Virus record (IMG/VR): IMGVR_UViG_3300049433_000139
Coordinates: 19,753 to 83,752 of that record
Length of the DNA: 64,000 nt
Source: a virus
Reading direction: 5' to 3' (one strand)
Position 1 is the first letter of the stretch. Every line of letters begins with the position of its first letter. Positions 3,320 through 63,413 of this stretch are shown piece by piece. The notes beneath the pieces were generated by a model that was not told where the DNA came from, did no database searches, and saw only the letters and a list, made by a program, of their open reading frames with translations. The position numbers and the translations under genes are program-made.

Positions 3320-3724
3320 ATGCGTTGCTTTCTATTACTCGCTTCTTCCGCTGCTCTTGCCGGCTGCGCTACGATCACAGAAGGAACCACACAAAACATC
3401 CGCGTCGAAGTGGTGCCCGATAGCGGAACTTGCGTTCTTTCGCGCAAGGGCGAAACTCTTGGCGCGTCGACACCTGGGCAGCGTATCGTCAACGTATCGA
3501 AGTCCATGAACGATATTGATTTCAAGTGTTCGGCACCCGGTCATCAGGACAGGGATGAAAGTTTGTCATCGTCGCTTTCGCCAGCAACCGTTGCCAGTTT
3601 CTTTTTGTTCGACTTGGGTATTGTAGACGCTACTAGCGGCGCATGGAAAAAGTATCCAGGGCGCATAACAGTCGTGTTGCAACCGTTACCTACCGTATCG
3701 CCGCCGGCCGTGAAGCGGCGTTAA
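3320..3724 (+). CDS. Lipoprotein moron, opposite strand within the tail module
   Basis: MRCFLLLASSAALAG-C lipobox; own TAGACA-N17-TAGCAT promoter at ~3264-3292. Confidence 0.8.
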   Translation: MRCFLLLASSAALAGCATITEGTTQNIRVEVVPDSGTCVLSRKGETLGASTPGQRIVNVSKSMNDIDFKCSAPGHQDRDESLSSSLSPATVASFFLFDLGIVDATSGAWKKYPGRITVVLQPLPTVSPPAVKRR

Positions 3725-19546: not shown

Positions 19547-21515
19547 GGGAGCGGGACCGGGCAACGCGCCGCGATGCCAAGCAGCGCGTTTAGCTTGCCT
19601 ATGGGATTAGTTGCGGAGCGCGGCAGCGACATGGTGCCGAAAAGATCGAACCAAGCCCACTGGTCAACCTCGCACGCTTTAGCGTTAGCGCGATCGACCG
19701 TGGCAAGCGCTTCGGTGTGCGTGACGAACGGACCAGCGAGCAGCGCAGTTCGCTTCCCGCGCCGCATGCTGACATAGTAGTCACAAACGTCTGTGCAGGG
19801 CATTACGCGGCGATCATGTTGCTGGAAACGTCACCGAACGCGGTGATTCGGCAGCCGTTGATGCAGTCCCAAGACTTGCCGCGCTGCACGAATACGTCCT
19901 TGCCGACGATCTTGAACATGGCTTTGTGCTTCGACTTGTAGTTCACGCTACGGGTATACGTGGTGACTGAAACCGAATTGCCGGCGTCCAAATTCGACAC
20001 GATAAAACGAAACATGCGACGAGCCTTATGCAGAGAAAGAATGCGGCCCGGTTTCATCTGTTCGTTGGTCATGGCGCGTCCTCGTTCTGATGCCGAGAAC
20101 TTACACCAAATTTGCAAACAGTCAACACATAATTGAACTAGTCACGCGGCTGTGACTACGCACAAGATTCGCATATCCAATCGTCACCCTCCGCCATTTC
20201 ACTCTGCTCAAACCACCAATTGCATTGTTCGCAGCAAAATACGAGTTGATCCAGTTCCGCACAGAACGCAGCATCATTTTCCAGGGCTTCGAATTCTTCC
20301 CCGAGGTTCGCAATCCCTTGACACGACCCTTCTAGACGTTCCGCAGCAATCCGTGCCATCTCGACGGGGGTGCTCACGCCGCCACCGGCACCAACAACGT
20401 CTCCGCCCGCGTCCCTCTGTTCCGGCAAGCCGCGCCACTCAACGGCCCGCGCCGGCCCGCAATCGCGGCTCGCCGCTCCGCCTCAGATCGCATCGCCGCG
20501 CGAATGTGATTCTTGAACATCCAAAAACGATTGCAAAAATCCTTCGGCCGCGGACCTTTCCAGGAGGACAGGTTAGACCAGACGTAAAGGCGAGTGGAGA
20601 GCGGGCGCCATTTGTAACAAAGGGATACGCGCGTGCCACTGAGGCGGACAACCGCGTGCCATTCGTGGGCATCGATGATTATATTTGGGGTGCGGTAAAG
20701 TGTGGTCATGGTTCCGAGTTCTCTTCGCGGGATTGGCGTTCCAAAGCATCCTCATCGGATTCCAATTCGCAAACACCATCCTTGCAGTTTTCAAACACTA
20801 AATATCCCAAACCGCAAACCCTACAATAAAATGGTTTACCGTTGTACGGATGGCGCTCGCCGCGTACTGCCCTGCTCACTTCCCTACCTCGCAAGCAATC
20901 GCATGCGCCTCTGCCCAAGGCAGGCCCGCATTGAGTAGGAGTCGAAGGGCGCGGCGGTAGGTCATGTGCGCGGCTCCGCGTCCGGCAGGATAAAATCGGT
21001 CGTCATTACAGACGCGTCCCACCCTTCGGCGTAGAGACGCTCAAAGCGCACCGCCGCACTTGGCGACATGATGTAAGCTTGCTCACGGTTCGTGTAGCGA
21101 TCGTTCGCTAGTCGCGCAGCAAGCCGGGCAGCGCGGGTTTTCCAGCCGTCCGAACTTGGGCAACGAACCGCCTTTTTACCCTTGGCGTAACGGGCGTTGC
21201 CGATCGTATATGCTGCGTCTTGGCTCATGCCCGCAAAGCTACAACAAATTTGCAAACAGTCAACAACTAATTGATGAAATCCGGCGCAAGGGCTGAAATA
21301 AATCCAGTCCGCTCCACCCGTTCGAACGTCGTCCCGTCTCGGGCATGTAGGGTTACTCGGTCGCCGTCGTTAAAACTAGGTGAAACCTGGAGGCGCGCTT
21401 GCTTCGGACACATCTTGGCCGCATCCTCGTCGTTCACGTCCCATATCAGGCGGCACACGGCGCAGTGCATCTGGTCGCTTCCGGTGTGGCGAGCTGCGCA
21501 GGGGGTTTCAAGCAT
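19543..21515 (-). CDS. Cluster of small hypothetical genes (19543-19803, 19803-20072, 20156-20377, 20374-20709, 20706-20918, 20962-21228, 21267-21515)
   Basis: Co-oriented coupled ORFs; several contain CxxC motifs. Confidence 0.6.
20098..20125 (-). promoter_or_regulatory. Phage promoter motif copy
   Basis: TCAA-TTATGTG-TTGACT-GTTTGCAAATTTGGTG-TAAGTT. Confidence 0.7.
21236..21263 (-). promoter_or_regulatory. Phage promoter motif copy (leaderless)
   Basis: TCAA-TTAGTTG-TTGACT-GTTTGCAAATTTGTTG-TAGCTT; ATG 7 nt downstream. Confidence 0.7.
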
Positions 21516-50592: not shown

Positions 50593-50649
50593 TGACTGTA
50601 AATCAGCCGTCTTATGACTTCGAAGGTTCGAGTCCTTCTTCCCCCACCA
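50593..50649 (+). tRNA. 3' portion of tRNA-Tyr(GTA) = att core (not an intact tRNA)
   Basis: TGA-CTGTAAA-TCA anticodon arm, long variable arm, GAAGGTTCGAGTCCTTC T arm, CCA end; D arm and 5' acceptor strand absent. Confidence 0.92.
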
Positions 50650-50806
50650 GCTTTGCTCGCGAAGCGAGCGAAGCTGCCACGCCGAAGCCCATCCGGCGAA
50701 GGCGGGCTGTGTACGCGAGCTACGGCTCGGGAGCTATCCTGCTTTCGCCCTGACGGGCTACGCGTGGCGCAGCAACCGCTTCTCGCTCGCCGCCTTCGAA
50801 GGCGAG
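50650..50806. repeat. Cluster of short GC-rich palindromes (REP-like)
   Basis: GCTCGCGAAGCGAGC, GCCCTGACGGGC, CTCGCC...GGCGAG hairpins. Confidence 0.5.
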
Positions 50807-51087
50807 TTCTCCGGCAACGTCACCAGCTATACCGGCAAGGGCGCCGCACGATATTCTTGGTGAGCGGTGCCGGCTCTTGCGGTGGCCGCGTGCAGGCCGT
50901 GGCCAAAGATCAACGCGAACGCCGTGTAAGCGGCGATTTTCGGCGGCAAGCCCGGCTGAACAGACTGCCGGACAGCGGTTCCACCGCCGCTCGGCCCTTT
51001 CGCAGCACATTTTCTTCTTTCATTGGCACGAATTCCACTTAAGATAGAGAGCATTAGGTTTGCGTAATTATTATTAAAGGTTTGCCG

Positions 51088-53772
51088 ATGCCCGAATTAG
51101 TTCAGAAGGGCAGTATAGCGGACGGACACCTTCTTTCGTCAGCACTGCCGTGCCTGCTTGTAGATGGCGACGGCATTGTTGTGAACGCGAGTCCGGCCGC
51201 TGAACGCCTTTGTGTCTCGCTCGCCAACCGGCCTCTGGCTGAGGCATTCGGTATATCCCGCGAAGCTTTGGCAGAGCACCTCGCAAGCCAGGGAAAACGT
51301 GTGCTTGTGGGCGAAAGCGTCGATATCAACGAGCACACCAACCATGTCGTCGCGCAGGCCGTCCAAATGCCTGAACGCTCGGGGACACTGGTCGTACTGA
51401 CCGACCTGCAGCCGTCGCGCCGCGCCGAAGAACAGCGCTTCGACGTAACACCCTATCCGGTTCTGCGGCTGTCATTTGACGGGCACATTGTTTTCACCAA
51501 CGAAGCAGCGCAACGCCAGCTTGGCGCAAACCTGATTGGCCGCCGGTTGTCGGACATTTTCCCCGAGACGGCGCGAGCCGAATTAATTCGCGAGTTTGCG
51601 ACCGACCCTCGTGAAAGCTCGGAGTACGACCTGCCGGCGCCGGATGCATTGCAAAGTTCCGAGGGCGCAACGGAGGTCCGGCTGTTTCTGATGCCCGACC
51701 TCGGTCCCGGAGACTACATCATCGGACGCATTGCCGTAGTGTCGTGGAATCCGTACGAAAAATACCGCGATGCCATCAGCACGGCGGTTAATCTGGGTGG
51801 CGGATGGGAACGCGCGTTTCGCGCGATGCTGGATGCGCTTCGCGTGGCAGTGCCCCATGATCGCGCCATCTTCGGCGTGTTCGCTGAAGACGGCACGCGC
51901 TTCCGCGTCACGCTTGTCCATCCTCAGCCCGAAGTGCCATGGCCTCGCCGTTGGGTTAACGTTCCGCCCGATCGCGCGGCTAGAGTCGCCAAAGGACCAT
52001 ACATCGACAACAACTGGGATGAAACGATCAAAGCGTACCCCAAGCTTCTTGACGATCCCACGGTTAAACGCAACATCGAGGACGGGATCGTTGGAATGCT
52101 TGTGCTGCCGATAGGTGGGCAAGGTATCCCGGACGGAGTTCTGACGTTTGCAAGCCGCAGCAAGGCCGCTTTCGACGATCAGGCACTACCCTTGCTGGGC
52201 TCGTTGCGCGTGGAATCCTATGTGGCCACGCTACTGCGCATGGCCGAGCGCGAGGACATTGCGGCGGTGGGGCGAATTGGCGATGCAATCGTCAAGGCAC
52301 AAAATATTCCTGACGCCGCCGATTTGCTGCTGAAAGACCTGGTGACCCATTTCAAGTGGGATCATGCGGCCCTGTTTTTTGCCGACGTTGCCTACAAGCG
52401 TACGGTGCTGGCGCGCCAATATCCCAATTTGAGCAAGTCCGGTGCTATGGATGAATTGGCAGTGGTGCCGGGATACTGGCAGCCACTGGATCGGGATCGC
52501 CCTGAGGAATCCGGAATGCTCGGGGCGGCTTTTTTTGCCGGCGAACCGCTGGTGGTCGAGGATACCGAAGCCCGCGGCCCTGACGGCAAACCCCTGTTCC
52601 ACTATCGGACCGCGGAGGGTTCCAAACAGCGGCGCTCGGCGATGACGGTGCCGATCCGGGTGAATCGCGAGATTCGTTGGTTGCTCGATATCGAATCTCT
52701 GACCACCCATGCTTTCGGCAACGACGACAAACGGATGGTCGAAAGAATTGTCCGCCGTCTCGAGCAGCGGATGGCTCTGCTGACCGAGCGGGTTTTGAGC
52801 GTGGCGCTGCTCAATACGATCGAGCAGGGCACGATCATGACGGACCGCGGGGGCCGCATTCTGCGCGCGAACCGAAGGGCCAGGGAATTACTCCGCCTGA
52901 ATGGCGAGTGGGCCGATTGGGGCAAGATTGAGCGTTACGGCGCGGATGAGCAGAGCCGGAACGTCCTCGCCAGCCACGCGATCGTGGAACGGCAACCGCT
53001 TCGAATTTGCGGCGAAGAAGGTGGCGTAGGGAACGCGGTCCTGGCCTCCCGGCGGGATTTGGATTTGGATACCGGCGACTCGTTCTGGCTTTTCACCGAT
53101 CTGCGCGTCGATGAGTGGCACCACGATTCTCATTTTATCGAAAGCACAATTCGGGAGGTTGCGGATCAAGCCCGCGGGCCTCTGATGTTGGCAGTTTCAT
53201 TCGTCAAGCGGATCGCGGAGGGCGCTCTTAGCAGCGATCTGGCGTCGCGCGCCGTTGCGGAACTCGGAAAGGCGAGTCTGACCTACAAGCGAATCGCCGA
53301 TTCTGTCGAAGCTCGCAAGGATCCAATAAGAACGCGGCGGTCACTGCAGCTGGATTCGTTGCTGCGCGATTTGCACAAAGCACTGCCGAAATGGGATGCG
53401 GGCCAGATCGACCTGTTCTTGCCGCGCAGCCACTTGTGTGTGTCGGGTGACGGGGCCCGCGTCGAGTTGGCGCTTCGCCTGATCGTGGCGTTTTTTCTGG
53501 GCCGCCTTCATCATACCGCGGCTCACGATAAAATAATCGATCTTGCGTTGCGCCAACGGCACGGAATGGCGGTCATCAAGCTATCGCTCAGGGAAGCTGA
53601 AAAGCCCGGCGCCCGCCTGCAGAAATTGCGTTTGCAAGTGGGAGCACCGTTGGAGACGGCCTCCATCATCGTGACCGCGCATGGTGGACAAATTTACGGG
53701 GCAGGTTTGGATTCAGGCTCGCCCCAAATGGAAGTCCGCCTGCCATTGCAAGAGGCCGACCATGCCGGATAA
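51088..53772 (+). CDS. PAS-PAS-GAF-GAF-PAS sensor with degenerate histidine-kinase core
   Basis: PAS (DGDGIVVNASPAAERL) and GAF (AMTVPIRVNREIRWLLDIES...F) patterns; H-box reads EVADQARGPL; N and G boxes eroded; AHGGQI retained. Confidence 0.8.
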   Translation: MPELVQKGSIADGHLLSSALPCLLVDGDGIVVNASPAAERLCVSLANRPLAEAFGISREALAEHLASQGKRVLVGESVDINEHTNHVVAQAVQMPERSGTLVVLTDLQPSRRAEEQRFDVTPYPVLRLSFDGHIVFTNEAAQRQLGANLIGRRLSDIFPETARAELIREFATDPRESSEYDLPAPDALQSSEGATEVRLFLMPDLGPGDYIIGRIAVVSWNPYEKYRDAISTAVNLGGGWERAFRAMLDALRVAVPHDRAIFGVFAEDGTRFRVTLVHPQPEVPWPRRWVNVPPDRAARVAKGPYIDNNWDETIKAYPKLLDDPTVKRNIEDGIVGMLVLPIGGQGIPDGVLTFASRSKAAFDDQALPLLGSLRVESYVATLLRMAEREDIAAVGRIGDAIVKAQNIPDAADLLLKDLVTHFKWDHAALFFADVAYKRTVLARQYPNLSKSGAMDELAVVPGYWQPLDRDRPEESGMLGAAFFAGEPLVVEDTEARGPDGKPLFHYRTAEGSKQRRSAMTVPIRVNREIRWLLDIESLTTHAFGNDDKRMVERIVRRLEQRMALLTERVLSVALLNTIEQGTIMTDRGGRILRANRRARELLRLNGEWADWGKIERYGADEQSRNVLASHAIVERQPLRICGEEGGVGNAVLASRRDLDLDTGDSFWLFTDLRVDEWHHDSHFIESTIREVADQARGPLMLAVSFVKRIAEGALSSDLASRAVAELGKASLTYKRIADSVEARKDPIRTRRSLQLDSLLRDLHKALPKWDAGQIDLFLPRSHLCVSGDGARVELALRLIVAFFLGRLHHTAAHDKIIDLALRQRHGMAVIKLSLREAEKPGARLQKLRLQVGAPLETASIIVTAHGGQIYGAGLDSGSPQMEVRLPLQEADHAG

Positions 53773-55270
53773 CCAGGAAATCCGTGTCATTAGCGCAAAT
53801 GACATTGTTCAGGATGTGTTGCAGAGCGAGATCGATCGCCTGGGCCCCCGATTGCCTCTGGTCAATCCGCGCATTACACGGTCATCAAGCTTGAAACATG
53901 CCCGTGACCAGATCGGAAAAGTTCAGCCGACGCTGGTAGTGCTGGATCCGGAAACGCCATCGAAGGATGGAACGCAGTCTTCGCGCGATATGCCCTCCGC
54001 CTTGATCGACGGAATTGGCGCGAAGGCGCCCATTCTCGTTGCTTTGACCCATTCCGAACAAGGTTGGGCGCAAGAAACGATTCGTCGTCCCGGCCTTTTA
54101 GTCTGGAACTGGGAGAATCAAAACAATGAGAACAACAAAAACGATAGCTGTACACTAGAACGCCTCCTGCCTTTGATTCTCAAGCCATCGCAAAAGCGCA
54201 AACTTCGAGCTGTCATTCGGCTCGGCTTGCGTCAGCCGACGTGCGACATCGATGTCGGAGATGCAGCTCTATTCCGCGATCTGCCGCTGGACGTCGAAGA
54301 TCTCTACAGGCGTGATTGGCGAACCGAAACCCAGCAGGTGCAGGGTCTGTTCGATGCTGACAATCGGATAACATCGTGGACATTTCTGGCGATGACAGGA
54401 AAGACGCTGTTCACCGCGATTTTTGACAAGCTTGGCGCGGCCTTGGTGCATGCACGCAACAATGGCACCACACTGGATTTGCGGTTTGAAATCGACCGGG
54501 ATGAAGTTGACCAACTGTTCTCAATGCCAGTCGAACTTCTCAACATCGAGGCAAATTGGGAGGGCTTCTTCTGCAGGACAACGGCCATGGCGCGGCGGGT
54601 GACGTCGCGTTCGGCCCATGAACGCCGGGAACCCTCGGAGCAGCCTGTTTTGCTATTTGTGGATGCGTCGGCGACACGAGGAGCCATGGATGTGGTCAAC
54701 AAAGAGGGCGAAGTTGAAAGCCGATCCTTCCGGGATTTGTCCGGTGCCGTGGCTGCCGAGCAGAAGGAACTTGAAGGGCTTGCGGCGTACTGCCGGCTCG
54801 AGGTTCTGAAGCCCAGGGAGGGGACCAGCTTGCAAGACGCCTTGCAGGATCGGCTGTCCGACACCTCCAAGCCGCCCCCGGAGATAATCCATTTTACCGG
54901 ACACGCTATTTCGCCGGAGTTCGGCAGCACCGAACTTATATTGCCGAGCGCCCGTCTGGGTGCGGTCGACCGGCTTCCGGTTGAGGTTTTCGCAGGTTGG
55001 CTCCCTGCGCAGGTGCAATTGGTTGTCCTGTCCGCCTGTCAGGGAGTTTCTGCGGATACGGCCCGGCGGCTGCACGCCGCCAAGGACATCGCTGTACTCG
55101 GTTTCCGGTGGGAGGTTCAGGCGGGAGCGGCGGCCGAGTTTGTCATCAACTTTTATAAAGCACGCCTGAAGCAGCGGGAGTCTATTGCTAACGCATATAA
55201 GACTGCTTGTTTAAAGGGTAACACCGCCAATTCCGCCTGGGCTGCCGCCGTGTTGCACGACCATGACTGA
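53762..55270 (+). CDS. Receiver-like domain + CHAT (caspase-like) protease
   Basis: PTLVVLD receiver-like strand; IIHFTGHA and LVVLSACQG His/Cys dyad; LGFRWEV...AAEF...FY. Confidence 0.85.
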   Translation: MPDNQEIRVISANDIVQDVLQSEIDRLGPRLPLVNPRITRSSSLKHARDQIGKVQPTLVVLDPETPSKDGTQSSRDMPSALIDGIGAKAPILVALTHSEQGWAQETIRRPGLLVWNWENQNNENNKNDSCTLERLLPLILKPSQKRKLRAVIRLGLRQPTCDIDVGDAALFRDLPLDVEDLYRRDWRTETQQVQGLFDADNRITSWTFLAMTGKTLFTAIFDKLGAALVHARNNGTTLDLRFEIDRDEVDQLFSMPVELLNIEANWEGFFCRTTAMARRVTSRSAHERREPSEQPVLLFVDASATRGAMDVVNKEGEVESRSFRDLSGAVAAEQKELEGLAAYCRLEVLKPREGTSLQDALQDRLSDTSKPPPEIIHFTGHAISPEFGSTELILPSARLGAVDRLPVEVFAGWLPAQVQLVVLSACQGVSADTARRLHAAKDIAVLGFRWEVQAGAAAEFVINFYKARLKQRESIANAYKTACLKGNTANSAWAAAVLHDHD

Positions 55271-55282
55271 CGGAGAAACGAC

Positions 55283-56572
55283 ATGTGGACTGCCCTTAAT
55301 CCGGTAATCGAGTTCCTGGGAGCCGGAGTCCACGGTCGCAGTAATCTGCGTCAAATCTACACGCCGGTCGTCTCGGACGCTCGTGAACCGGGGCTGGGTG
55401 GAGATCAGTTCGTTGCAGGCAAGACTTATTTCAGCGTGCGTTTGATTGAGCTCCGGCTGGCGACGGCTGGACGCTATCTCACCGAATTCCTGCCGATGTG
55501 CACCTGCGTCCTGAGCTTCCAGCAGGGAGCCGACAAGCGAACGATCCCCTTTATCGCCGGGGCGGACATGATCCGCGGACTGGTGGGGCAGAATGCACCA
55601 GCGGACGCTGCCAAGCGGATCGCCTTTGCAAATCTCGCCGCCGCTACAAACGTGCCGGTGCCGGGCGGCGATGTGACGATGTACCTGTCGCTGTGCCGGT
55701 TCAAGGACAGCAGTCTGGTGCGCGGACTGCTCGACCTCGCGACGAAAACCGTCACTGCGGTTGGCGGTCCGGTTGCCGGTCCGATGGCGAAGGCGGCAAA
55801 CGATTTTGTCGGCGGATTGATGAATATCTTCTCGATGGACGGGGTGGAAACCCGGTTTGGACGTCTCGATGGAAAAGCGCTCGGCACCAGCGGCTATCGT
55901 CTGCTGGCCGGATCCGCGGACCCTTCGCTGAACCCTCAGGAGTTGCGCGTGCAGGACGGCCAGCTCATGCGCCGCGTCGAGGGCAAGGATGTCCCGATCG
56001 ACGACGTCGACTACCTTGTGATCGCGTTCGAGCACCGGTCGACGCTGATCGACGTCACCTTCTCTCTGGTAGAGGCGCTGCCTTTTCACGCGCACTGGCG
56101 CGCCGTCATGGACAAGATCGTACGCGCCAGAGGCGCTCCTGCCGCCGCCGACGCCGAGATGATCGAACTTCGCGCTGCCGTGCTGATGTCGCCGGAACTG
56201 ACGGAAATGGACCGGCTGCCGTTGCTTCAACTCTACGACGTAAAGCGGGAGCAAATGGAGGCGCAGTTCAACCCGAACAAGGAAAAGAAAAGCGGCGGCG
56301 CAGGCTTGCAGGCTGTGCTCGAGCGTCGCGTGCAAATCGAAACCAAATCCGGCGGGATCGCGGCATCCCTACTCGGCACGGCGACCAAGGCGATGACGAA
56401 TGTGCTCACCGGAGAGGATGGTGTTAAAGCGGGCGAAAAGCCTGACGGCAGAAACATGGTGTCAACGTTCAAGGAAATCCTGCAAGGACAGAGCGAGCAG
56501 ATCGCCGCGGCGAGTCGTGAAGAACTCGCCGAGACAGCGCGCGCCTATGTCGCGGCCGCTGCGCGGAGGTAG
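55283..56572 (+). CDS. Hypothetical protein, third gene of the CHAT operon
   Basis: 429 aa; RBS GGAG; starts 12 nt after the CHAT stop. Confidence 0.8.
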   Translation: MWTALNPVIEFLGAGVHGRSNLRQIYTPVVSDAREPGLGGDQFVAGKTYFSVRLIELRLATAGRYLTEFLPMCTCVLSFQQGADKRTIPFIAGADMIRGLVGQNAPADAAKRIAFANLAAATNVPVPGGDVTMYLSLCRFKDSSLVRGLLDLATKTVTAVGGPVAGPMAKAANDFVGGLMNIFSMDGVETRFGRLDGKALGTSGYRLLAGSADPSLNPQELRVQDGQLMRRVEGKDVPIDDVDYLVIAFEHRSTLIDVTFSLVEALPFHAHWRAVMDKIVRARGAPAAADAEMIELRAAVLMSPELTEMDRLPLLQLYDVKREQMEAQFNPNKEKKSGGAGLQAVLERRVQIETKSGGIAASLLGTATKAMTNVLTGEDGVKAGEKPDGRNMVSTFKEILQGQSEQIAAASREELAETARAYVAAAARR

Positions 56573-56892: not shown

Positions 56893-57208
56893 TGACGACT
56901 CTTTGAGATGCTTCCCGCATCCGCCTCGCTTCAGGACTATTGTCGACGTGCTGCCCGCACGCGAGCTTCTGGCCGGCCTGCGGAAGATCTATCAACGTGC
57001 ACCTGCAATCGCTTGCCCGATATTGCTGTTCGCGCATCGGTGCGGTTCGGCCGAGCGAAGGCGCCGTTCCGGCTAAATTACTATTTAATTGAAAACATCG
57101 AGGCCGGAAAAGATTTGCAGGTATCGGTTGGGGGCACGCAGCTCAGACAGCATTGTCCTGTGCTTGCGGTTGAAAGCCGCCCGACCAATGATCAACGAGG
57201 TCACCGAT

Positions 57209-57703
57209 ATGTTGCACAGAGCGCCCCTCACGATTCCCACGGCCCTTCCGGAAAAAGCGGTTCATGACATTTCGCAAGCGTTGATACCGCTGCTCTCCGA
57301 TGTGTTTGCGTTGTATCTCAAAACAAAGAACTTTCATTGGCATATGTCTGGCCCGCATTTCCGGGACTATCATTTGATGCTCGACGATCAGGGCGAGCAG
57401 ATTTTCGCGATGACGGACGCCATTGCCGAGCGAGCACGGAAGCTCGGAGGTACGACCATTCGCTCCATCGGGCAGATTTCGCGTTTTCAGCGCGTCGTCG
57501 ACAACGATGCCGAAACCGTTGAGCCGCTCGACATGATAGCCGAACTCCGGGACGATAATGCTGGTCTGACGCAGACCATGCGCGAGGTGCATTCGCTATG
57601 CGACGAGGCAGGGGATGTGGCCACCGCAAGCCTGCTGGAGAACTGGATTGACGAATCCGAGAGGCGAACCTGGTTCCTGTTCGAATGCGGCCGGCATGTC
57701 TAA
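57209..57703 (+). CDS. dps: Dps DNA-protection ferritin-like protein
   Basis: LYLKTKNFHWHMSGPHFRDYHLMLDDQ...DAIAERAR. Confidence 0.95.
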   Translation: MLHRAPLTIPTALPEKAVHDISQALIPLLSDVFALYLKTKNFHWHMSGPHFRDYHLMLDDQGEQIFAMTDAIAERARKLGGTTIRSIGQISRFQRVVDNDAETVEPLDMIAELRDDNAGLTQTMREVHSLCDEAGDVATASLLENWIDESERRTWFLFECGRHV

Positions 57704-57926
57704 GGCCAAGCCGCGAGACCAGCTGCGGGAGGCGCCAATGAATGTCAGGAGCGGCCGGTCAGCTACAAAGCGTCCAGTCAAGGATCAAGGAAAAACACGT
57801 TTCGCGAAACCGGAAGTACAAGCCGCGGAGTGGGAACTTGCGGATGAACGACTCGACGAAGCCCTAAGACAAACCTTCCCTGCGAGTGACGCGCTATCGA
57901 TTGTTCAAAATGTTCGCGGTAGCTAG
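57696..57926 (+). CDS. Small hypothetical protein
   Basis: LDEALRQTFPASD motif. Confidence 0.65.
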   Translation: MSKAKPRDQLREAPMNVRSGRSATKRPVKDQGKTRFAKPEVQAAEWELADERLDEALRQTFPASDALSIVQNVRGS

Positions 57927-58042
57927 TTGCATAAGGTTCGACGGGGGAGCCAGATTACCATCGCCTGCGCCTGTCCTCGACCCGGTCGAGGATGACCGGG
58001 CGACCCAGTATTTCGGCGCCCGGGCACAGACGAGGACACATC

Positions 58043-58978
58043 ATGAAGATTGGAATAATCGGGGCGGGTGCGGTTGGCGCCGCATGTGCAATGGCGACCA
58101 TCATGAGAGGTTGCGCTAGCGAACTGGTTCTCGTCAACCGAGGCCGCGATCGAGCAAAAGGGATGGCTACCGACATGGGCTACGGAGCCCCTCTATCATC
58201 GACCACCAGGGTGACGGATGGTGACTATTCAGATCTGGCCGGCGCCTCGCTCGTCATGGTTACGGTTGGCGTCAACGAAAAAACGGGTGGAGCAACCGAT
58301 CGCAGCGATCCGGCAGGGCGCCTGCGCCTGCTGGACAAGAATGCGCAAGTTTATCGCGAGGTTATTCCCCAGATCAACGCTGTGGCGCCGGATGCAGTTC
58401 TGCTTGTCGTAACCGACCCTCCGGATCCGCTTGCCTGGCTGACGCGCGAACTCGCTCGCCATGATCGCGTTCTCAGCACCGGCACATTGCTCGACAGTTT
58501 GCGCTTTCGGGTGCATCTGGGGCGAAAACTCAAGGTAGCTTCCACTTCTATCGAAGCCCAGGTTCTCGGTGAACATGGAACATCGCAGATCTTTCACTGG
58601 TCCGGCGCCCGCGTGGGCGGCGTCCCGATCGCGGATGCGCTTGGGCAATGCGGCCTTGCGCATGACGACGATTTTCGCGCGACGATCGAGAAGGAAGTGC
58701 GGTATGCGAACATCACAATCATCGAAGGTATCGGAGCCAGCCAATACGGAATTGGAATGGTTTGCGCGCGGATCGCAGAGATCGTGCTGCATGACGAACG
58801 CGCCGTGATTCCGATCGGGGTCTATAATTCGAAACTTGGCGTAACGCTCTCGCTGCCAAGCGTGGTCGGCCGGGGCGGCTGCCTCCAGGTCCTTGATCCT
58901 CCGTTATCGAATGACGAGCGTATGGGTCTGAATAAATCTGTCGAAACATTGCGCAAGGCCCAGGAGCGAGTGCGCTGA
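58043..58978 (+). CDS. L-lactate/malate dehydrogenase family protein
   Basis: IIGAGAVG, GTLLDSLR and GEHG motifs. Confidence 0.92.
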   Translation: MKIGIIGAGAVGAACAMATIMRGCASELVLVNRGRDRAKGMATDMGYGAPLSSTTRVTDGDYSDLAGASLVMVTVGVNEKTGGATDRSDPAGRLRLLDKNAQVYREVIPQINAVAPDAVLLVVTDPPDPLAWLTRELARHDRVLSTGTLLDSLRFRVHLGRKLKVASTSIEAQVLGEHGTSQIFHWSGARVGGVPIADALGQCGLAHDDDFRATIEKEVRYANITIIEGIGASQYGIGMVCARIAEIVLHDERAVIPIGVYNSKLGVTLSLPSVVGRGGCLQVLDPPLSNDERMGLNKSVETLRKAQERVR

Positions 58979-59074
58979 CATCGTCCCGGACGTAAAGCTG
59001 GAACCGCCGTAGCATAAAAAGTCGGGCTGACGGAATTTTGCTGCCAGCCCGACCTCTTCGAACGCGTGTACGGA

Positions 59075-59314
59075 TCAATAGACCGACGCGGGTTCGCAAG
59101 GCGGAGCGCCATTCCAGGGCTGCGTGGCGAATGCGCCAACGGCCGGAGCCGGAATGCACGCGCGCCCATCAACGTAACGCGTGTCCGGCGTGGTGCTCGC
59201 ATTGGCGTCCGCCGCGACGTGCCGCGACGCCACACCGCTCTCGCGAGCCAAGGCGGGGCTTGCGAGCGTGGCTGCGGCGATCAGTGCAGCCGACAGAAGT
59301 TTAAGCTTGGTCAT
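59075..59314 (-). CDS. Small secreted protein
   Basis: MTKLKLLSAALIAAATLASPALA signal peptide; CIPAPAVGAFATQPW. Confidence 0.7.
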   Translation of the reverse strand: MTKLKLLSAALIAAATLASPALARESGVASRHVAADANASTTPDTRYVDGRACIPAPAVGAFATQPWNGAPPCEPASVY

Positions 59315-59664
59315 TCGATTTCTCCATTGGATGTGAAAAGCCGATAGTTTGGCTTCTCTATGGAAATGGAGCAGCGATCGGCCGATCATAGTAACAATTC
59401 CTCACCTCGTTACAACGCCGCGTGAGGTCGGTGCGTCGTACAGCGGCAATGCTCCATTGCTCTTGACGTCCCGGGGAATTCTAAATCCGTTTTTAATTGA
59501 GAACACCTCAGTTGGCGACCATTGTCAGAGTCGCTTCCGGCCGTTGTTCTGTTGCCGGAAGTTTTGTTGGGGCGCGACCCTTCCAAGAAGATACCGGGGA
59601 AACTCAAGGGCGTGGCCGGGGGAAAGTCCGCGCACGCAACGGCTGGCTATGTCCGGAGGTAAAG

Positions 59665-60180
59665 ATGATTCTGTTCTCACGCTCCTTTGTCCGCAAACGC
59701 ATGATTTCGCTGGCAACCACGGCGACAGTCGCGGCGACATCGTTCGCTCTTGCAGAGGATTCGTCGCGGGCGGATCACGTCGGTGGAGCAACGCCGATCC
59801 AAACTGTGGCGGACCGGCCGGATCGTTCGGCGGAGCAGCCGTTCCTGTCGGAGAACGAAGCCGCGATGAAAAGGATGATGGCGGACATGACGGTGAAGCC
59901 GACCGGCGACGTCGATCGCGATTTTGTCGCGATGATGGTGCCGCACCATCAGGGCGCGGTCGATATGGCGCAAGCCGAACTCAAATACGGCCATAACGAG
60001 CAGCTTCGCCGGTTGGCGCGAGAGATCGTTGCGAACCAGCAGCAAGAGATCACGGTCATGCGCAATGCCGTCAGTGAAGGGCAATCGTCCGCGGCGCAAT
60101 CGTCGCAGCAACCCCGTACGCAAAAGTCACCGCCATCGGCCCGGACTGACGGCCCCGACGGAATGAAGATGTCGCAATAA
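59665..60180 (+). CDS. DUF305 (CopM-like) periplasmic protein
   Basis: DRDFVAMMVPHHQGAVDMA...QQQEI. Confidence 0.88.
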   Translation: MILFSRSFVRKRMISLATTATVAATSFALAEDSSRADHVGGATPIQTVADRPDRSAEQPFLSENEAAMKRMMADMTVKPTGDVDRDFVAMMVPHHQGAVDMAQAELKYGHNEQLRRLAREIVANQQQEITVMRNAVSEGQSSAAQSSQQPRTQKSPPSARTDGPDGMKMSQ

Positions 60181-60230
60181 CCGGCTCCCGCCGCAGACTT
60201 CGTTCGCGGGCTGCGCTGCAAGGATAGATC

Positions 60231-63200
60231 ATGGGCATTGTTCGCTTTGCGCTGAGGTTTCCGCATACTTTCTATGTGCTGGCGGCCCTGATCCTGTTTC
60301 TCGGCGTCGCCGCAATCCGGTCGATGCCGACCGATATTTTTCCGGAGATCCGCATTCCGGTGGTGACCGTCATATGGCAATACACCGGCCTCACCACGCC
60401 GGAAATGGAACAGCGCGTCAGCACCTACAGCCAGTATTCCATCAGCTCCAACGTCAACGGCATCAAGAATATGGAAGCGCAGACCCTGAACGGTCTGTCG
60501 ATCCAGAAGATCTACTTCCAGCCCGACGTCAACCTCGACCTCGCCATCGCGCAAATCGTGTCGGCGACCAACGCCATTCGCGCGCTGATGCCGCCGGGCA
60601 TCGAACCGCCGATCGTCGTCCAGTTCAATGCGTCGAGCGTTCCGGTCCTGCAGCTCAGCCTCAATTCGGATAGTTTGAACGAACAGCAACTCTACGACTT
60701 CGGCATCTATCGCGTTCGCCAGCAGCTGGCGCCGGTTCCCGGCGTCACCCTGCCGACGCCGGCGGGCGGCAAGTATCGTCAGATCATGGTGGATATCGAC
60801 CCGGACAAGCTGCTGTCCCGGGGATTGACGCCGCTCGACATCGTGAACGCGGTCAATACCCAGAACCTGACACTGCCGTCGGGAACGGCAAAGATCGGCG
60901 ACACCCAATATACGGTGCGAACCAATGCGACGCCGGCGTCGATCAACGACCTAAACATGATGCCGGTCAAGTTCGCCAACGGTGCCACCATCCTTTTGAA
61001 GGACGTGGCGCAGGTCCGCGACGGATCGCTGGTGCAGCAGAACATCGTGCGCGAGGATGGCCGCCGCTCGGTTCTGCTGAGCATCATCAAGAACGGCAAC
61101 GCCTCCACGCTGGCGGTCGTCAATGGCGTCAAGAAAGCGTTGGAGGCGACCCGCGCCGCAGCACCAGCCGGAATGAAAATCACCGAGCTGTTCGACCAGT
61201 CGGTATTCGTCACAAACTCGGTCACCGGCGTGCTGCGTGAAGGCGCCATCGCCGCGGGTCTCACCGCGCTGATGATCCTGATCTTCCTGGGTTCCTGGCG
61301 CTCGACGCTGGTGGTGATGATATCAATCCCGCTGGCGATCCTGTCGTCGCTGGTGGTGCTTTATTTTCTCGGCGAAACGCTGAACACCATGACGCTGGGC
61401 GGCCTCGCGCTGGCGGTCGGCATCTTGGTCGACGATTCGACCGTGACCATCGAGAACACGCACCGTCTGTGGACCGAAGAAGGCATGCCGCTTTCCGAGG
61501 CGACGCTGCACGGCGCCGCTGAAATTGCGGTGCCGACGCTGGTTTCCACGCTCGCCATCAGCTGCGTGTTCACGTCGGTGGTGTTCCTCGACGGCCCGGC
61601 CAAATACCTGTTCACGCCGCTTGGACTCGCGGTCGTATTCGCGATGCTGGCTTCCTACCTGTTGTCGCGGACCCTGACGCCGATCACGATCGGCCTGCTG
61701 CTCAAGGGCGAACGCCACCATGCGGGCAATGAAACCCCGACAGGCGTGTTCGGGCGCATGTCCGCCGGGTTTGAGCGCAGCTTCGATCGGCTACGTGGCG
61801 GATATTCGAAATTGCTCACGACACTGCTTCGCCGGCGGGCCATCGTGCCTGTCGTTGCCGTGTTGATACTTGGCCTTGGCGCGGTGATGCTCACCTTCGT
61901 TGGCCGGGACTTTTTCCCGCTCATCGACGGCGGTCAGATCCAGCTTCACGTCCGCGCTCCCGCCGGCACCCGCATCGAAAGCACCGAGGCGATCTTCCAG
62001 GCGGTCGAGGATAAAATCCGCGAAGTCATTCCGGAGAAGGACCGCTCCCTGATCGTCGACAATATCGGACTGCCGGCGCGAGCCTACAATCTGGCATTCG
62101 CGGATGGCTCGACCATCGGGATCAACGATGGCGTCATCCAGATAGCGCTCAAGGAGGGCCACAAGCCGACCGCCGACTATATCAAGAAATTGCGTCAGGT
62201 CTTGCCGGCCGCATTCCCGGAAAACACGTTCTACTTCCAGGCGGCCGATATCGTGACACAGATTCTGAATTTCGGACTGCCGGCGCAGATCGACGTCCGG
62301 ACGATGGGTTACGACAAGAACAATCTGTCGGTTGCAAAGAAACTCCGCCAACGTCTGGCCGCCATCCCCGGCATCGTCGACGCACATCTGCAGCAGGAGG
62401 TCGATGGACCGGCCTTCTACGCCGACATCGATCGCACCCGCGCCGCGCAGCTTGGCCTCAATGCGAGCACGGTGGCCACCAACATCAACGTCAGCCTGAG
62501 TTCGTCGGTGCAGGTGTCGCCCAATTTCTGGACCGATCCGACCTCGGGCATTCCGTATTATCTGGCGGTGCAGACGCCCGAGTACAAAGTCAACTCGTTG
62601 AATGCGCTCGGAAACACGCCGGTTTCCACCTCGCTGGCGGTGAGCGGCCAAACCGTCCCCGGCATGCTCAGCAATGTCGCGACATTCAAACGGGACACGG
62701 TCGCCACCAACTCCAACCAGACCAACATCCAGCCGGTGTTCGACGTCTATGCCAGCGTGCAGGGTCGCGATCTCGGCGGCGTCGCAGCCGACATCAACAA
62801 GGTCACGGCCGAACTGCAGAAGGAACTGAAACCCGGCAATTCAATTCAGGTGATCGGACAAATCCAGAGCATGAATGACTCGTTCCGGGATCTGGGCATC
62901 GGACTGCTGTTCGCCGCCGTGTTCGTCTATCTGCTGATGGTCGTGAACTACCAGACCTTTGGCGACCCGTTTGTCGTGATCCTGGCTTTGCCGGCGACGC
63001 TCTGCGGTATCGTCACGATGCTGTTCATCACCGGCACCACGTTGAACGTGCCGTCGCTGATGGGGGCGATCATGGCGGTAGGCGTCGCTTCGGCGAACTC
63101 GATCCTGCTCGTGACTTTTGCGCGCGAGCAGCAGCTGAAAGGGCACTCCGCCTTCGAGGCCGCCATCAGTGCCGGCTACACCCGAATCCGCCCCGTCCTG

Positions 63201-63413
63201 ATGACGGCAGCCGCGATGATCGTCGGCATGATCCCGATGGCGATCGGCGGGGCCGGCGAGGAACAGAACGCCGCGCTTGCGCGTGCTGTCATCGGCGGCC
63301 TGCTGTTTGCGACACCGACGACGTTGCTGATCGTGCCTTACCTGTTCGCCATGCTGCGCAAGGGCAACGACGGAAAGCCTCACCATGGCGTATTCGAGGA
63401 AGTTCCAGCATGA
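60231..63413 (+). CDS. RND efflux permease
   Basis: 1060 aa; GILVDD and RIRPVLMT motifs. Confidence 0.96.
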   Translation: MGIVRFALRFPHTFYVLAALILFLGVAAIRSMPTDIFPEIRIPVVTVIWQYTGLTTPEMEQRVSTYSQYSISSNVNGIKNMEAQTLNGLSIQKIYFQPDVNLDLAIAQIVSATNAIRALMPPGIEPPIVVQFNASSVPVLQLSLNSDSLNEQQLYDFGIYRVRQQLAPVPGVTLPTPAGGKYRQIMVDIDPDKLLSRGLTPLDIVNAVNTQNLTLPSGTAKIGDTQYTVRTNATPASINDLNMMPVKFANGATILLKDVAQVRDGSLVQQNIVREDGRRSVLLSIIKNGNASTLAVVNGVKKALEATRAAAPAGMKITELFDQSVFVTNSVTGVLREGAIAAGLTALMILIFLGSWRSTLVVMISIPLAILSSLVVLYFLGETLNTMTLGGLALAVGILVDDSTVTIENTHRLWTEEGMPLSEATLHGAAEIAVPTLVSTLAISCVFTSVVFLDGPAKYLFTPLGLAVVFAMLASYLLSRTLTPITIGLLLKGERHHAGNETPTGVFGRMSAGFERSFDRLRGGYSKLLTTLLRRRAIVPVVAVLILGLGAVMLTFVGRDFFPLIDGGQIQLHVRAPAGTRIESTEAIFQAVEDKIREVIPEKDRSLIVDNIGLPARAYNLAFADGSTIGINDGVIQIALKEGHKPTADYIKKLRQVLPAAFPENTFYFQAADIVTQILNFGLPAQIDVRTMGYDKNNLSVAKKLRQRLAAIPGIVDAHLQQEVDGPAFYADIDRTRAAQLGLNASTVATNINVSLSSSVQVSPNFWTDPTSGIPYYLAVQTPEYKVNSLNALGNTPVSTSLAVSGQTVPGMLSNVATFKRDTVATNSNQTNIQPVFDVYASVQGRDLGGVAADINKVTAELQKELKPGNSIQVIGQIQSMNDSFRDLGIGLLFAAVFVYLLMVVNYQTFGDPFVVILALPATLCGIVTMLFITGTTLNVPSLMGAIMAVGVASANSILLVTFAREQQLKGHSAFEAAISAGYTRIRPVLMTAAAMIVGMIPMAIGGAGEEQNAALARAVIGGLLFATPTTLLIVPYLFAMLRKGNDGKPHHGVFEEVPA

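Follow-up and report, generated by a model that had tools for sequence, protein, structure and literature searches.

The right-hand 64 kb of IMG/VR virus record IMGVR_UViG_3300049433_000139, an 83,752-base record classed as viral, carries a cassette of three co-directional genes on the plus strand, which we interpret as a protease-effector module in which both the partner family and the two-component sensor, which is chemically dead, are undescribed. We refer to the whole stretch that was analysed, 64,000 nucleotides at positions 19,753 to 83,752 of the record, as the window, and positions below are those of the window unless stated otherwise. Gene 1 (51088-53772, +) encodes a soluble sensor with the domain order PAS-GAF-GAF-PAS, whose C-terminus is of the pseudo-histidine-kinase type. 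Counted from its ATG the protein has 894 amino acids (aa); there is an alternative TTG start at 51082, but the length of 894 aa recorded in the sequence collection is consistent with the ATG at 51088. Gene 2 (53762-55270, +; 502 aa) combines a receiver-like N-terminus with a CHAT domain, and gene 3 (55283-56572, +; 429 aa) belongs to an unannotated family and is, we propose, the substrate and effector of the protease.

A first-pass annotation, made from the sequence alone, had described three coupled genes just downstream of a tRNA attachment (att) site, and this description proved accurate. Checked on the sequence, genes 1 and 2 overlap by 11 bp and a 12-nt gap separates gene 2 from gene 3. 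The att site is an exact 61-nt copy of the 3' part of tRNA-Tyr at 50593-50653 (+), which is the attR at the right end of a prophage, and the cassette starts 434 nt beyond its end. Because this repeat bounds the prophage at 50653, the cassette lies outside it and is host chromosome DNA.

A pseudokinase sensor and a CHAT protease

The PAS and GAF inputs predicted for gene 1 were found as Pfam domains: PAS_4 at residues 120-171, a weak GAF_3 match at 249-374, GAF/GAF_2 at 407-562 and PAS_8/PAS at 575-610. No hydrophobic 19-mer in the protein reached a Kyte-Doolittle (KD) hydropathy of 1.6. Pfam gave neither a HisKA nor a HATPase_c domain, even when the last 237 residues were searched alone at E 10, and none of the ten gene 1 relatives in the collection has a kinase domain recorded in Pfam. 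The nature of the C-terminus was indicated by a profile built from the last ~240 residues of five diverged cassettes. Searched against PDB, this profile had 16 matches, all of them histidine kinases, with the VanS catalytic domain as the best (E 4e-6). The alignment to ZraS spans both DHp and CA domains and places the ZraS sequence VAHEIRNPL over VAaQarGpL of the gene 1 profile, a stretch with the pattern VA-x-Q-A-R/H-G-P/G-L. The C-terminus of gene 1 is homologous to the DHp/CA region of histidine kinases.

What the homologous region lacks is the chemistry. Its DHp-like helices (53119-53343, +) carry the H-box EVADQARGPL, in which the phospho-acceptor position is occupied by Asp (codon 53164-53166), and across an alignment of 14 orthologues, ranging from 100% down to ~27% identity, the residues found there are D,D,R,R,R,R,R,R,S,A,R,R,A,A, with His in 0/14. 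The CA domain that follows (53347-53751, +), an ATP-binding fold recognised through the VanS profile match, is degenerate: the N-box Asn, the DxGxG of G1 and the GxGLG of G2 are all missing from the 14-orthologue alignment. Among the CA motifs only the terminal AHGG remains, and this motif, a GD..R motif and other C-terminal positions are invariant among the orthologues. Both the His-less H-box and the eroded ATP-binding boxes reported in the first-pass annotation are therefore features of the family as well as of this gene, which has the DHp/CA homology of a two-component histidine kinase but neither its acceptor His nor its N, G1 and G2 boxes. Since these losses are common to the whole cassette family, recent decay is excluded; as judged from the alignment, gene 1 is a pseudokinase in which the catalytic loss is old and has been maintained. 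The His is absent from about 0.9% of HisKA domains (PMC12632262), and pseudo-kinases are therefore already known.

The CHAT domain of gene 2 (54398-55216, +; PF12770, residues 213-485) scored 47.1 bits against a cut-off of 24 (E 2.9e-12), and the codons of both catalytic motifs were checked: HFTGH, with His377 and His381 (54890-54904), and LSAC, with Cys426 (55037-55039). All three residues are invariant in 11/11 gene 2 relatives, and the Pfam score and the His/Cys dyad both identify a CHAT/caspase-like protease. The first-pass annotation had described a receiver fused to a CHAT domain with an intact dyad; the second half of that description stood, and the first half drew only weak matches. 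The ~200 N-terminal residues of gene 2 have no Pfam assignment, with no match to Response_reg even at E 10. When the gene 2 family profile was compared with PDB, 41 weak matches appeared at E<=10, nearly all of them receivers, with PhoP (1mvo) the best at E 0.065. They cover profile positions 5-128, corresponding to a receiver-like domain at 53762-54151 (+), and put the stretch LVVLDPETP on the strand that bears the acceptor Asp. Asp62, at the acceptor position, is Asp in 10/11 relatives and Asn in one (P0028), and the acidic pair, the conserved Thr/Ser and the Lys of receivers are not evident in the alignment. On this pattern of residues the domain is probably a pseudo-receiver as the term is defined in PMC12632262. 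An hhalign comparison of the gene 2 family with the CtrA-like receiver encoded elsewhere in the window gave no informative alignment, and single-sequence searches of PDB with gene 1 and gene 2 returned nothing useful.

Recurrence of the cassette and exchange of its sensor

The word-indexed collection contained 16 gene 3 relatives, and alignment scans found relatives in two species genomes and four metagenome contigs, to which searches of further genomes added more distant ones. The order gene 1-gene 2-gene 3, established with tblastn and Pfam, is kept in six loci, namely the window, Bradyrhizobium erythrophlei (L002), an Acetobacterales metagenome-assembled genome (L003) and loci L006, L013 and L014, with identities to the window's genes 1, 2 and 3 that fall from 74/64/76% to ~27/36/27%. 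The closest genomic match to gene 3, at 76% identity, is in B. erythrophlei GAS478. Two further contigs (L004, L005) begin inside gene 2 and continue into gene 3, and a soil metagenome contig (L007; 831-1952) retains only a gene 3 fragment, from ~residue 87, behind a transposase-like open reading frame (ORF). The cassette in L002 is flanked by a transposase, a serine recombinase and a group II intron reverse transcriptase, that in L003 by Ppx/GppA, and those in L013 and L014 by MFS, amidohydrolase, GGDEF-EAL and ABC binding proteins. Since the flanks differ in every locus, these three genes, and only these, move as a unit.

The cassette is also rare. Matches to the gene 3 profile were found in 4/401 genomes of the family, 3/401 of a phylum sample, 1/401 of an order sample (the centre itself) and 4/301 Acetobacterales, counts that include the centres and are lower bounds because only 4-5 first-look candidates were scored per genome. 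This rarity is typical of accessory systems. One B. erythrophlei genome with a full cassette (G001) has a second, weak and partial match to the gene 3 profile (L021:7893-8900, -), covering profile positions 114-184 at E 2.5e-9. The ORF that contains it encodes 335 aa and neighbours a SPOR-domain protein and a chaperonin, and no protease lies close by.

The gene 3 family is not confined to pseudokinase cassettes. In three loci (L015, L020, L056) a CHAT-like protein of 377-459 aa is followed by an nSTAND1-type NTPase of ~1,000 aa and then by a gene 3 relative of 355-377 aa. Pfam identified the NTPase in L015 and L020, and the L056 protein was assigned from its similarity to these; nSTAND1 was defined, among STAND proteins, as a clade belonging to counter-invader systems (PMC8195603). 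The pair of stand-alone CHAT-like proteins had no Pfam or PDB match, and their assignment therefore rests mainly on ESM Atlas, where the 377-aa protein fell among CHAT clusters with a feature score of 0.97 and structural template-modelling (TM) scores of 0.69-0.78, its ten best named matches (10/10) all belonging to this family. An hhalign comparison of the pair with the gene 2 family was weak (probability 18.5%, E 1.3e-3) and had the His and Cys in register. The L015 cassette (genome G170) lies between the HsdR subunit of a type I restriction system (R subunit; L015:2868-5906, +) and a fused PARIS AriAB homologue (L015:15359-16576, -; E 1.9e-83), and this locus is a small defence island built around the CHAT-like/nSTAND1/gene 3-like cassette.

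Outside the window, a CHAT-type gene stands beside the gene 3 relative in 10 of 13 credible loci, comprising five full and two contig-cut loci of the pseudokinase type and three of the nSTAND1 type. The other three are L007, which is cut by an insertion element, L057 and L058; the weak partial match in L021 was excluded as doubtful. Because a CHAT-type protease and gene 3 occur together under either a pseudokinase or an nSTAND1 NTPase, it is the pair that is kept and the sensor that is swapped. A partner adjacent to the protease and retained across different sensors is the arrangement of a protease-effector module, and the pairing of the gene 3 family with a different CHAT-like protease under nSTAND1 fits a role for gene 3 as the partner of the CHAT protease.

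Predicted fold of gene 3 and a proposed switch

Gene 3 had been called unrecognised, and it remained so in Pfam, PHROG and PADLOC. An exhaustive profile search recovered a large family: 565 cluster representatives match at E<=1e-3, and 289 of them reach E<=1e-10. Most are 340-450 aa long, and the name given in ESM Atlas clusters and in their sources is only "hypothetical protein". A Pfam search of 99 members gave one match, to DUF2508 (E 0.0084), which we treated as noise, and the family profile found nothing convincing among PDB sequences (best E 0.11, helical proteins). Conservation across the family is limited to Tyr49, Pro71, Pro89 and a small number of hydrophobic or structural residues, and since this includes no enzyme-like set of residues, the alignment argues against an enzyme.

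A first structural model, from 13 close sequences, had a mean predicted local distance difference test score (pLDDT) of 57.5, with the N-terminal half below 50, and was discarded in favour of an AlphaFold2 model from 99 sequences (pLDDT 87.4; predicted TM score, pTM, 0.87). This model, with VIA-align, delimits a C2-like beta-sandwich at residues ~44-254 (55412-56044, +). Inserted in the sandwich is an amphipathic, Gly/Ala-rich helical hairpin (residues 143-183; 55709-55831, +), noted on first inspection of the sequence and now modelled as helix-loop-helix, with helices at 143-160 and 168-183 and a loop at 161-168 that is the sole stretch of the model with pLDDT<50. A C-terminal helical domain follows (residues 261-428; 56063-56566, +), its helices, from 269-281 to 412-428, predicted at high pLDDT and its loops near 330-341 and 377-388 flexible in the model. 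This domain is the least conserved part of the protein, is shorter in the 340-377-aa relatives and may serve in autoinhibition. In 99/99 family members the hairpin exceeds the protein as a whole in hydrophobicity. It is not a transmembrane segment, as the maximal 19-mer KD value is >=1.6 in only 4/99, and neither gene 2 nor gene 3 contains a hydrophobic stretch of transmembrane strength.

Comparison of the sandwich with known structures pointed consistently to C2 domains. A wide VIA-align search matched it to the C2 domain of cPLA2 (1bci_A; Z 7.9, root-mean-square deviation 3.3 Å, 115/123 residues aligned) and to that of perforin (4y1s_A; Z 7.7). Among its best 50 rows, 26 are titled C2 domain and most others are PLC, PI3K or cPLA2, and the best 50 rows of a second structural alignment are all PLC, PI3K, cPLA2 or E-Syt (top Z 8.1, 4gnk_D). 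Like the C2 domains of cPLA2, perforin, PLC and PI3K, the predicted sandwich appears to have eight strands and a similar size and topology, with 115-120 residues aligned at Z 7.7-8.1; unlike them, it carries the 40-residue helical hairpin, sequence identity is 4-13%, and the scores lie in the range of a common arrangement, since VIA-align cautions that Z <8 may reflect no more than that. We regard the model's sandwich as C2-like with moderate confidence. No gasdermin, MACPF body or Craspase substrate is among the listed fold matches, which is evidence neither for nor against such a relationship.

The model was also compared with BFVD, where the sole match below E 1e-3 was an uncharacterised protein of Hokovirus HKV1 (A0A1V0SF49; E 9.9e-5, TM 0.32/0.40 over 339 aligned columns). 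This giant-virus protein may have a comparable two-domain architecture.

Taken together, these features suggest a switch in which a pseudo-two-component pair, independent of phosphorylation, controls a protease, and gene 3, the substrate of this protease, is a latent effector that may be directed to membranes. To this reading as a whole we give about an even chance. The soluble PAS/GAF protein would sense an intracellular cue. Its DHp/CA region, which would lack both ordinary ATP binding and a site for a phosphoryl group, would serve only to give a conformational output and to dock the receiver-like domain of gene 2, and an altered contact between the two proteins would release or assemble the CHAT protease. 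The His/Cys dyad would then cleave gene 3, in this reading a non-enzymatic effector, removing or opening its helical C-terminal domain or the hairpin loop, and the C2-like lipid-binding sandwich and the amphipathic hairpin could act on a membrane. The outcome would be arrest of growth or cell death, most likely as a defence of the abortive-infection type or as another conflict response. The first-pass annotation had likewise suggested a two-component scaffold repurposed to activate a protease without phosphorylation, with gene 3 as substrate or effector. That idea gained support from the co-occurrence of the genes and from the finding that the sensor is no decaying kinase; the contact between DHp and receiver and the cleavage of gene 3 are steps that we infer.

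The proposed switch has its closest parallel in the protease-effector modules of Evans et al. (2025 preprint; PMC12642450), where interchangeable sensors are fused or linked to a protease whose target is a latent effector encoded beside it. As in the EACC1, Pepco, MBL, alpha/beta-hydrolase and bacterial gasdermin modules of that survey, the cassette sets a caspase-like protease beside a non-protease partner under an exchanged sensor, and gene 3, too, has a part that could be removed. EACC1 and Pepco are pore-forming effectors licensed by the protease (PMC12642450). The cassette differs in that gene 3, compared by size and description, falls outside the ten partner families surveyed, and in that the sensors named in the main text, to which the supplementary tables add more, do not include a PAS/GAF pseudokinase acting through a receiver-like adaptor (PMC12642450). 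For gene 3, cleavage is proposed. With regard to bacterial gasdermin in particular, gene 3 has no Pfam or PADLOC match and no gasdermin stands among its listed fold matches, lists that do not exclude one.

A kinase-type sensor followed by a receiver-fused effector, without a transcription factor, is also the plan of Detocs, another small accessory operon, which consists of the kinase DtcA, the receiver DtcB and the receiver-effector DtcC (10.1101/2023.01.24.525353). In Detocs the kinase His and the receiver Asp are required, as the H645A and D58A mutants lose defence (10.1101/2023.01.24.525353). The cassette, in contrast, has no kinase His in any orthologue, no ATP boxes and no separate buffer receiver, and its output is a protease with a separate partner. 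The combination of active kinase, stand-alone buffer receiver and receiver-fused effector that would identify Detocs is not present, and PADLOC did not call it. Type III-E CRISPR Craspase, in which gRAMP and TPR-CHAT cleave Csx30, offers an analogy for a CHAT protease held by a sensor partner and directed at a dedicated neighbouring protein, as we propose here. It is unlike the cassette in that the latter has no CRISPR components, TPR or sigma/anti-sigma genes, and its adaptor is receiver-like. Gene 3 had no match to Craspase substrates in PDB, by sequence or with Foldseek, a search that is not decisive for relatedness.

For the sensor itself, a precedent exists in Caulobacter, where the pseudo-histidine kinase DivL signals by binding the receiver DivK, inside a phosphorelay with true kinases. 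The cassette would resemble this pair in keeping a His-less DHp/CA region as a signalling surface for a receiver, and would depart from it in that both partners appear non-catalytic and the proposed output is proteolysis. Signalling by pseudo-histidine kinases through receiver binding is discussed as a concept in PMC12632262. Full-text literature searches found no description of this cassette; it may be mentioned in the supplements of PMC12642450 or of the Detocs preprint (Fig. S8).

Several observations weigh against the proposed switch. PAS and GAF inputs are typical of environmental or metabolic sensing and not of known phage sensors. No cassette protein matches PADLOC 2.0.0 (PADLOC-DB, 2023 version), and among the loci of the pseudokinase type none lies in a recognisable defence island, the L013 and L014 neighbours being metabolic or signalling genes. 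The receiver assignment of gene 2 is weak, as its best E value shows, and was not reproduced when the L013-type N-terminus (L013/L014) was compared with PDB. Gene 3 has no transmembrane segment; its C2 match, at Z 7.9-8.1, is borderline by the tool's own yardstick, and Foldseek found nothing for the model in PDB at E<=1e-3. Finally, in two loci no protease was detected. In L057 the gene 3 relative stands beside an unknown 388-aa ORF and FtsK, and in L058 (L058:4314-6950, -; genome G1294) a gene 3-like domain, residues ~351-649, is embedded in an 878-aa protein. The N-terminal part of this long protein includes a stretch, TIGIGYDVG, that we take to resemble a T4-lysozyme-type motif; if the motif is real, it would link the gene 3 family to the cell envelope.

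The gating of effectors by proteases is emerging as a main principle of immunity in bacteria, and such effectors as forerunners of the cell-death pathways of eukaryotes. If the switch operates as proposed, the cassette would add to them a large partner family, still unnamed, whose fold is best known from membrane targeting in eukaryotes. It would also add a sensor made from a chemically dead kinase-receiver pair, in which two-component docking is reused without phosphate, all in a compact three-gene system that is directly testable in laboratory strains. A bolder and more doubtful extension, which we put forward tentatively, is that the gene 3 family comprises unrecognised protease-licensed bacterial death effectors, with a C2-like lipid-binding sandwich and a concealed amphipathic hairpin, forming a prokaryotic counterpart of perforin's C2-guided membrane attack. 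One branch of the family would then be governed by a two-component pair without phosphotransfer, kinase-receiver docking serving as the allosteric switch for a caspase-like protease.

The strongest competitor, although we think it rather unlikely, is that the cassette uses regulated proteolysis to control physiology or development. The PAS/GAF protein would read redox state, light, oxygen or a metabolite, and gene 3, once processed by the CHAT protease, would be a non-lethal scaffold, membrane-recruited regulator or inhibitor. Eukaryotic C2 domains are mostly reversible membrane-recruitment modules, which would suit such a role, as would the classical environmental and metabolic input domains, the lack of PADLOC matches and the MFS, amidohydrolase, GGDEF-EAL and ABC binding protein neighbours in L013 and L014, which are not defence genes. 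A physiological switch accords less well with a cassette that is very sparse and patchy across species genomes, has non-syntenic flanks rich in mobile elements and encodes no sigma factor or transcription factor. Also against it is the occurrence of the gene 3 family with an nSTAND1 NTPase, a member of a counter-invader clade (PMC8195603), in an island of restriction and PARIS genes.

Gene 3 might instead act on the CHAT protease as a cofactor, an inhibitor or a targeting subunit, perhaps by keeping it inactive or bringing it to the membrane. The substrates would then be cellular proteins, as they are for caspase-like proteases with many targets. We judge this improbable, although pairing with CHAT-type proteases under two sensors is what any obligate partner would show, no conserved candidate cleavage motif was identified, and the whole-chain pTM suggests a compact protein. 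There is a precedent for cellular substrates in the caspase-like immunity of type IV Thoeris, cited as cleaving EF-Tu (PMC13581612). However, in the EACC1, Pepco, MBL and alpha/beta-hydrolase pairs the adjacent non-protease gene is the substrate (PMC12642450), and the flexible loops and poorly conserved C-terminal domain of gene 3 are as expected of a removable part.

Far less probable is that the cassette is a superinfection-exclusion or lysogenic-conversion module of the neighbouring phage, as the viral classification of the record and the short distance from the phage end might suggest. We rejected a prophage origin on the grounds that the cassette lies outside the att repeat and that no viral contig has a relative (0 confirmed among 180 pattern matches in the viral contig collection); its relatives are in bacterial chromosomes and in metagenome contigs without phage genes. 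Least credible of all is an ordinary two-component system in decay, beside a gene that is there by chance, for although kinase boxes are missing and a small fraction of HisKA domains elsewhere lack the His, all three frames are intact with lengths that match their orthologues, the same losses extend to the most distant orthologues while other C-terminal motifs stay invariant, and the gene order is kept in six loci.

Chromosomal setting of the cassette

To the left of the cassette lie phage replication genes, encoding an exonuclease, RtcB, a gp2.5-like single-stranded DNA-binding protein, DNA polymerase, a GIY-YIG protein and a CtrA-like regulator, and to its right a ferritin/Dps, a malate/lactate dehydrogenase (Mdh) and AcrB. 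As the prophage is bounded by the 61-nt tRNA-Tyr repeat, the cassette, Dps, Mdh and AcrB, all to the right of 50653, are host genes. An AT-rich promoter-like site precedes gene 1 at 51045-51074 (+), matching 9/12 consensus positions; it is weak and not above chance, the region having three such sites where 2.1 are expected.

Four related genomes (G841, G862, G854 and G001) have tRNA-Tyr followed by other DNA, and their homology to the window ends at ~50739. In three of them (G841, G862, G854) tRNA-Gly follows tRNA-Tyr after 3-4 kb and the Dps-Mdh block is found elsewhere, with AcrB near it in G841 and G854. The cassette is absent from both the tRNA-Tyr locus and the Dps-Mdh locus of the relatives examined. 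With homology stopping near 50739 and Dps-Mdh displaced, the locus must have been rearranged and is no simple insertion; the arrangement of Dps-Mdh and AcrB points to a rearrangement at the cassette junction, and the junction that the cassette occupies in the host chromosome is both rearranged and variable. A tandem island at the same tRNA was considered and rejected, as the 3' end of the tRNA has no further copy at <=3 mismatches and there are no notable flanking repeats.

Within the window, Dps-Mdh and AcrB (57089-63413) are co-directional. In two related genomes (L034, L036) they are divergent, ~5.7 kb apart and far from tRNA-Tyr.

ARAGORN and Rfam found no tRNA within the 64-kb window, and the 23-nt 3' end of tRNA-Tyr occurs there once against an expectation of 0. 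The partner of the 61-nt direct repeat lies at positions 3438-3498 of the record, in a tRNA-Tyr at record positions 3409-3494. The record, classed as a 100% complete virus, carries host flanks on both sides.

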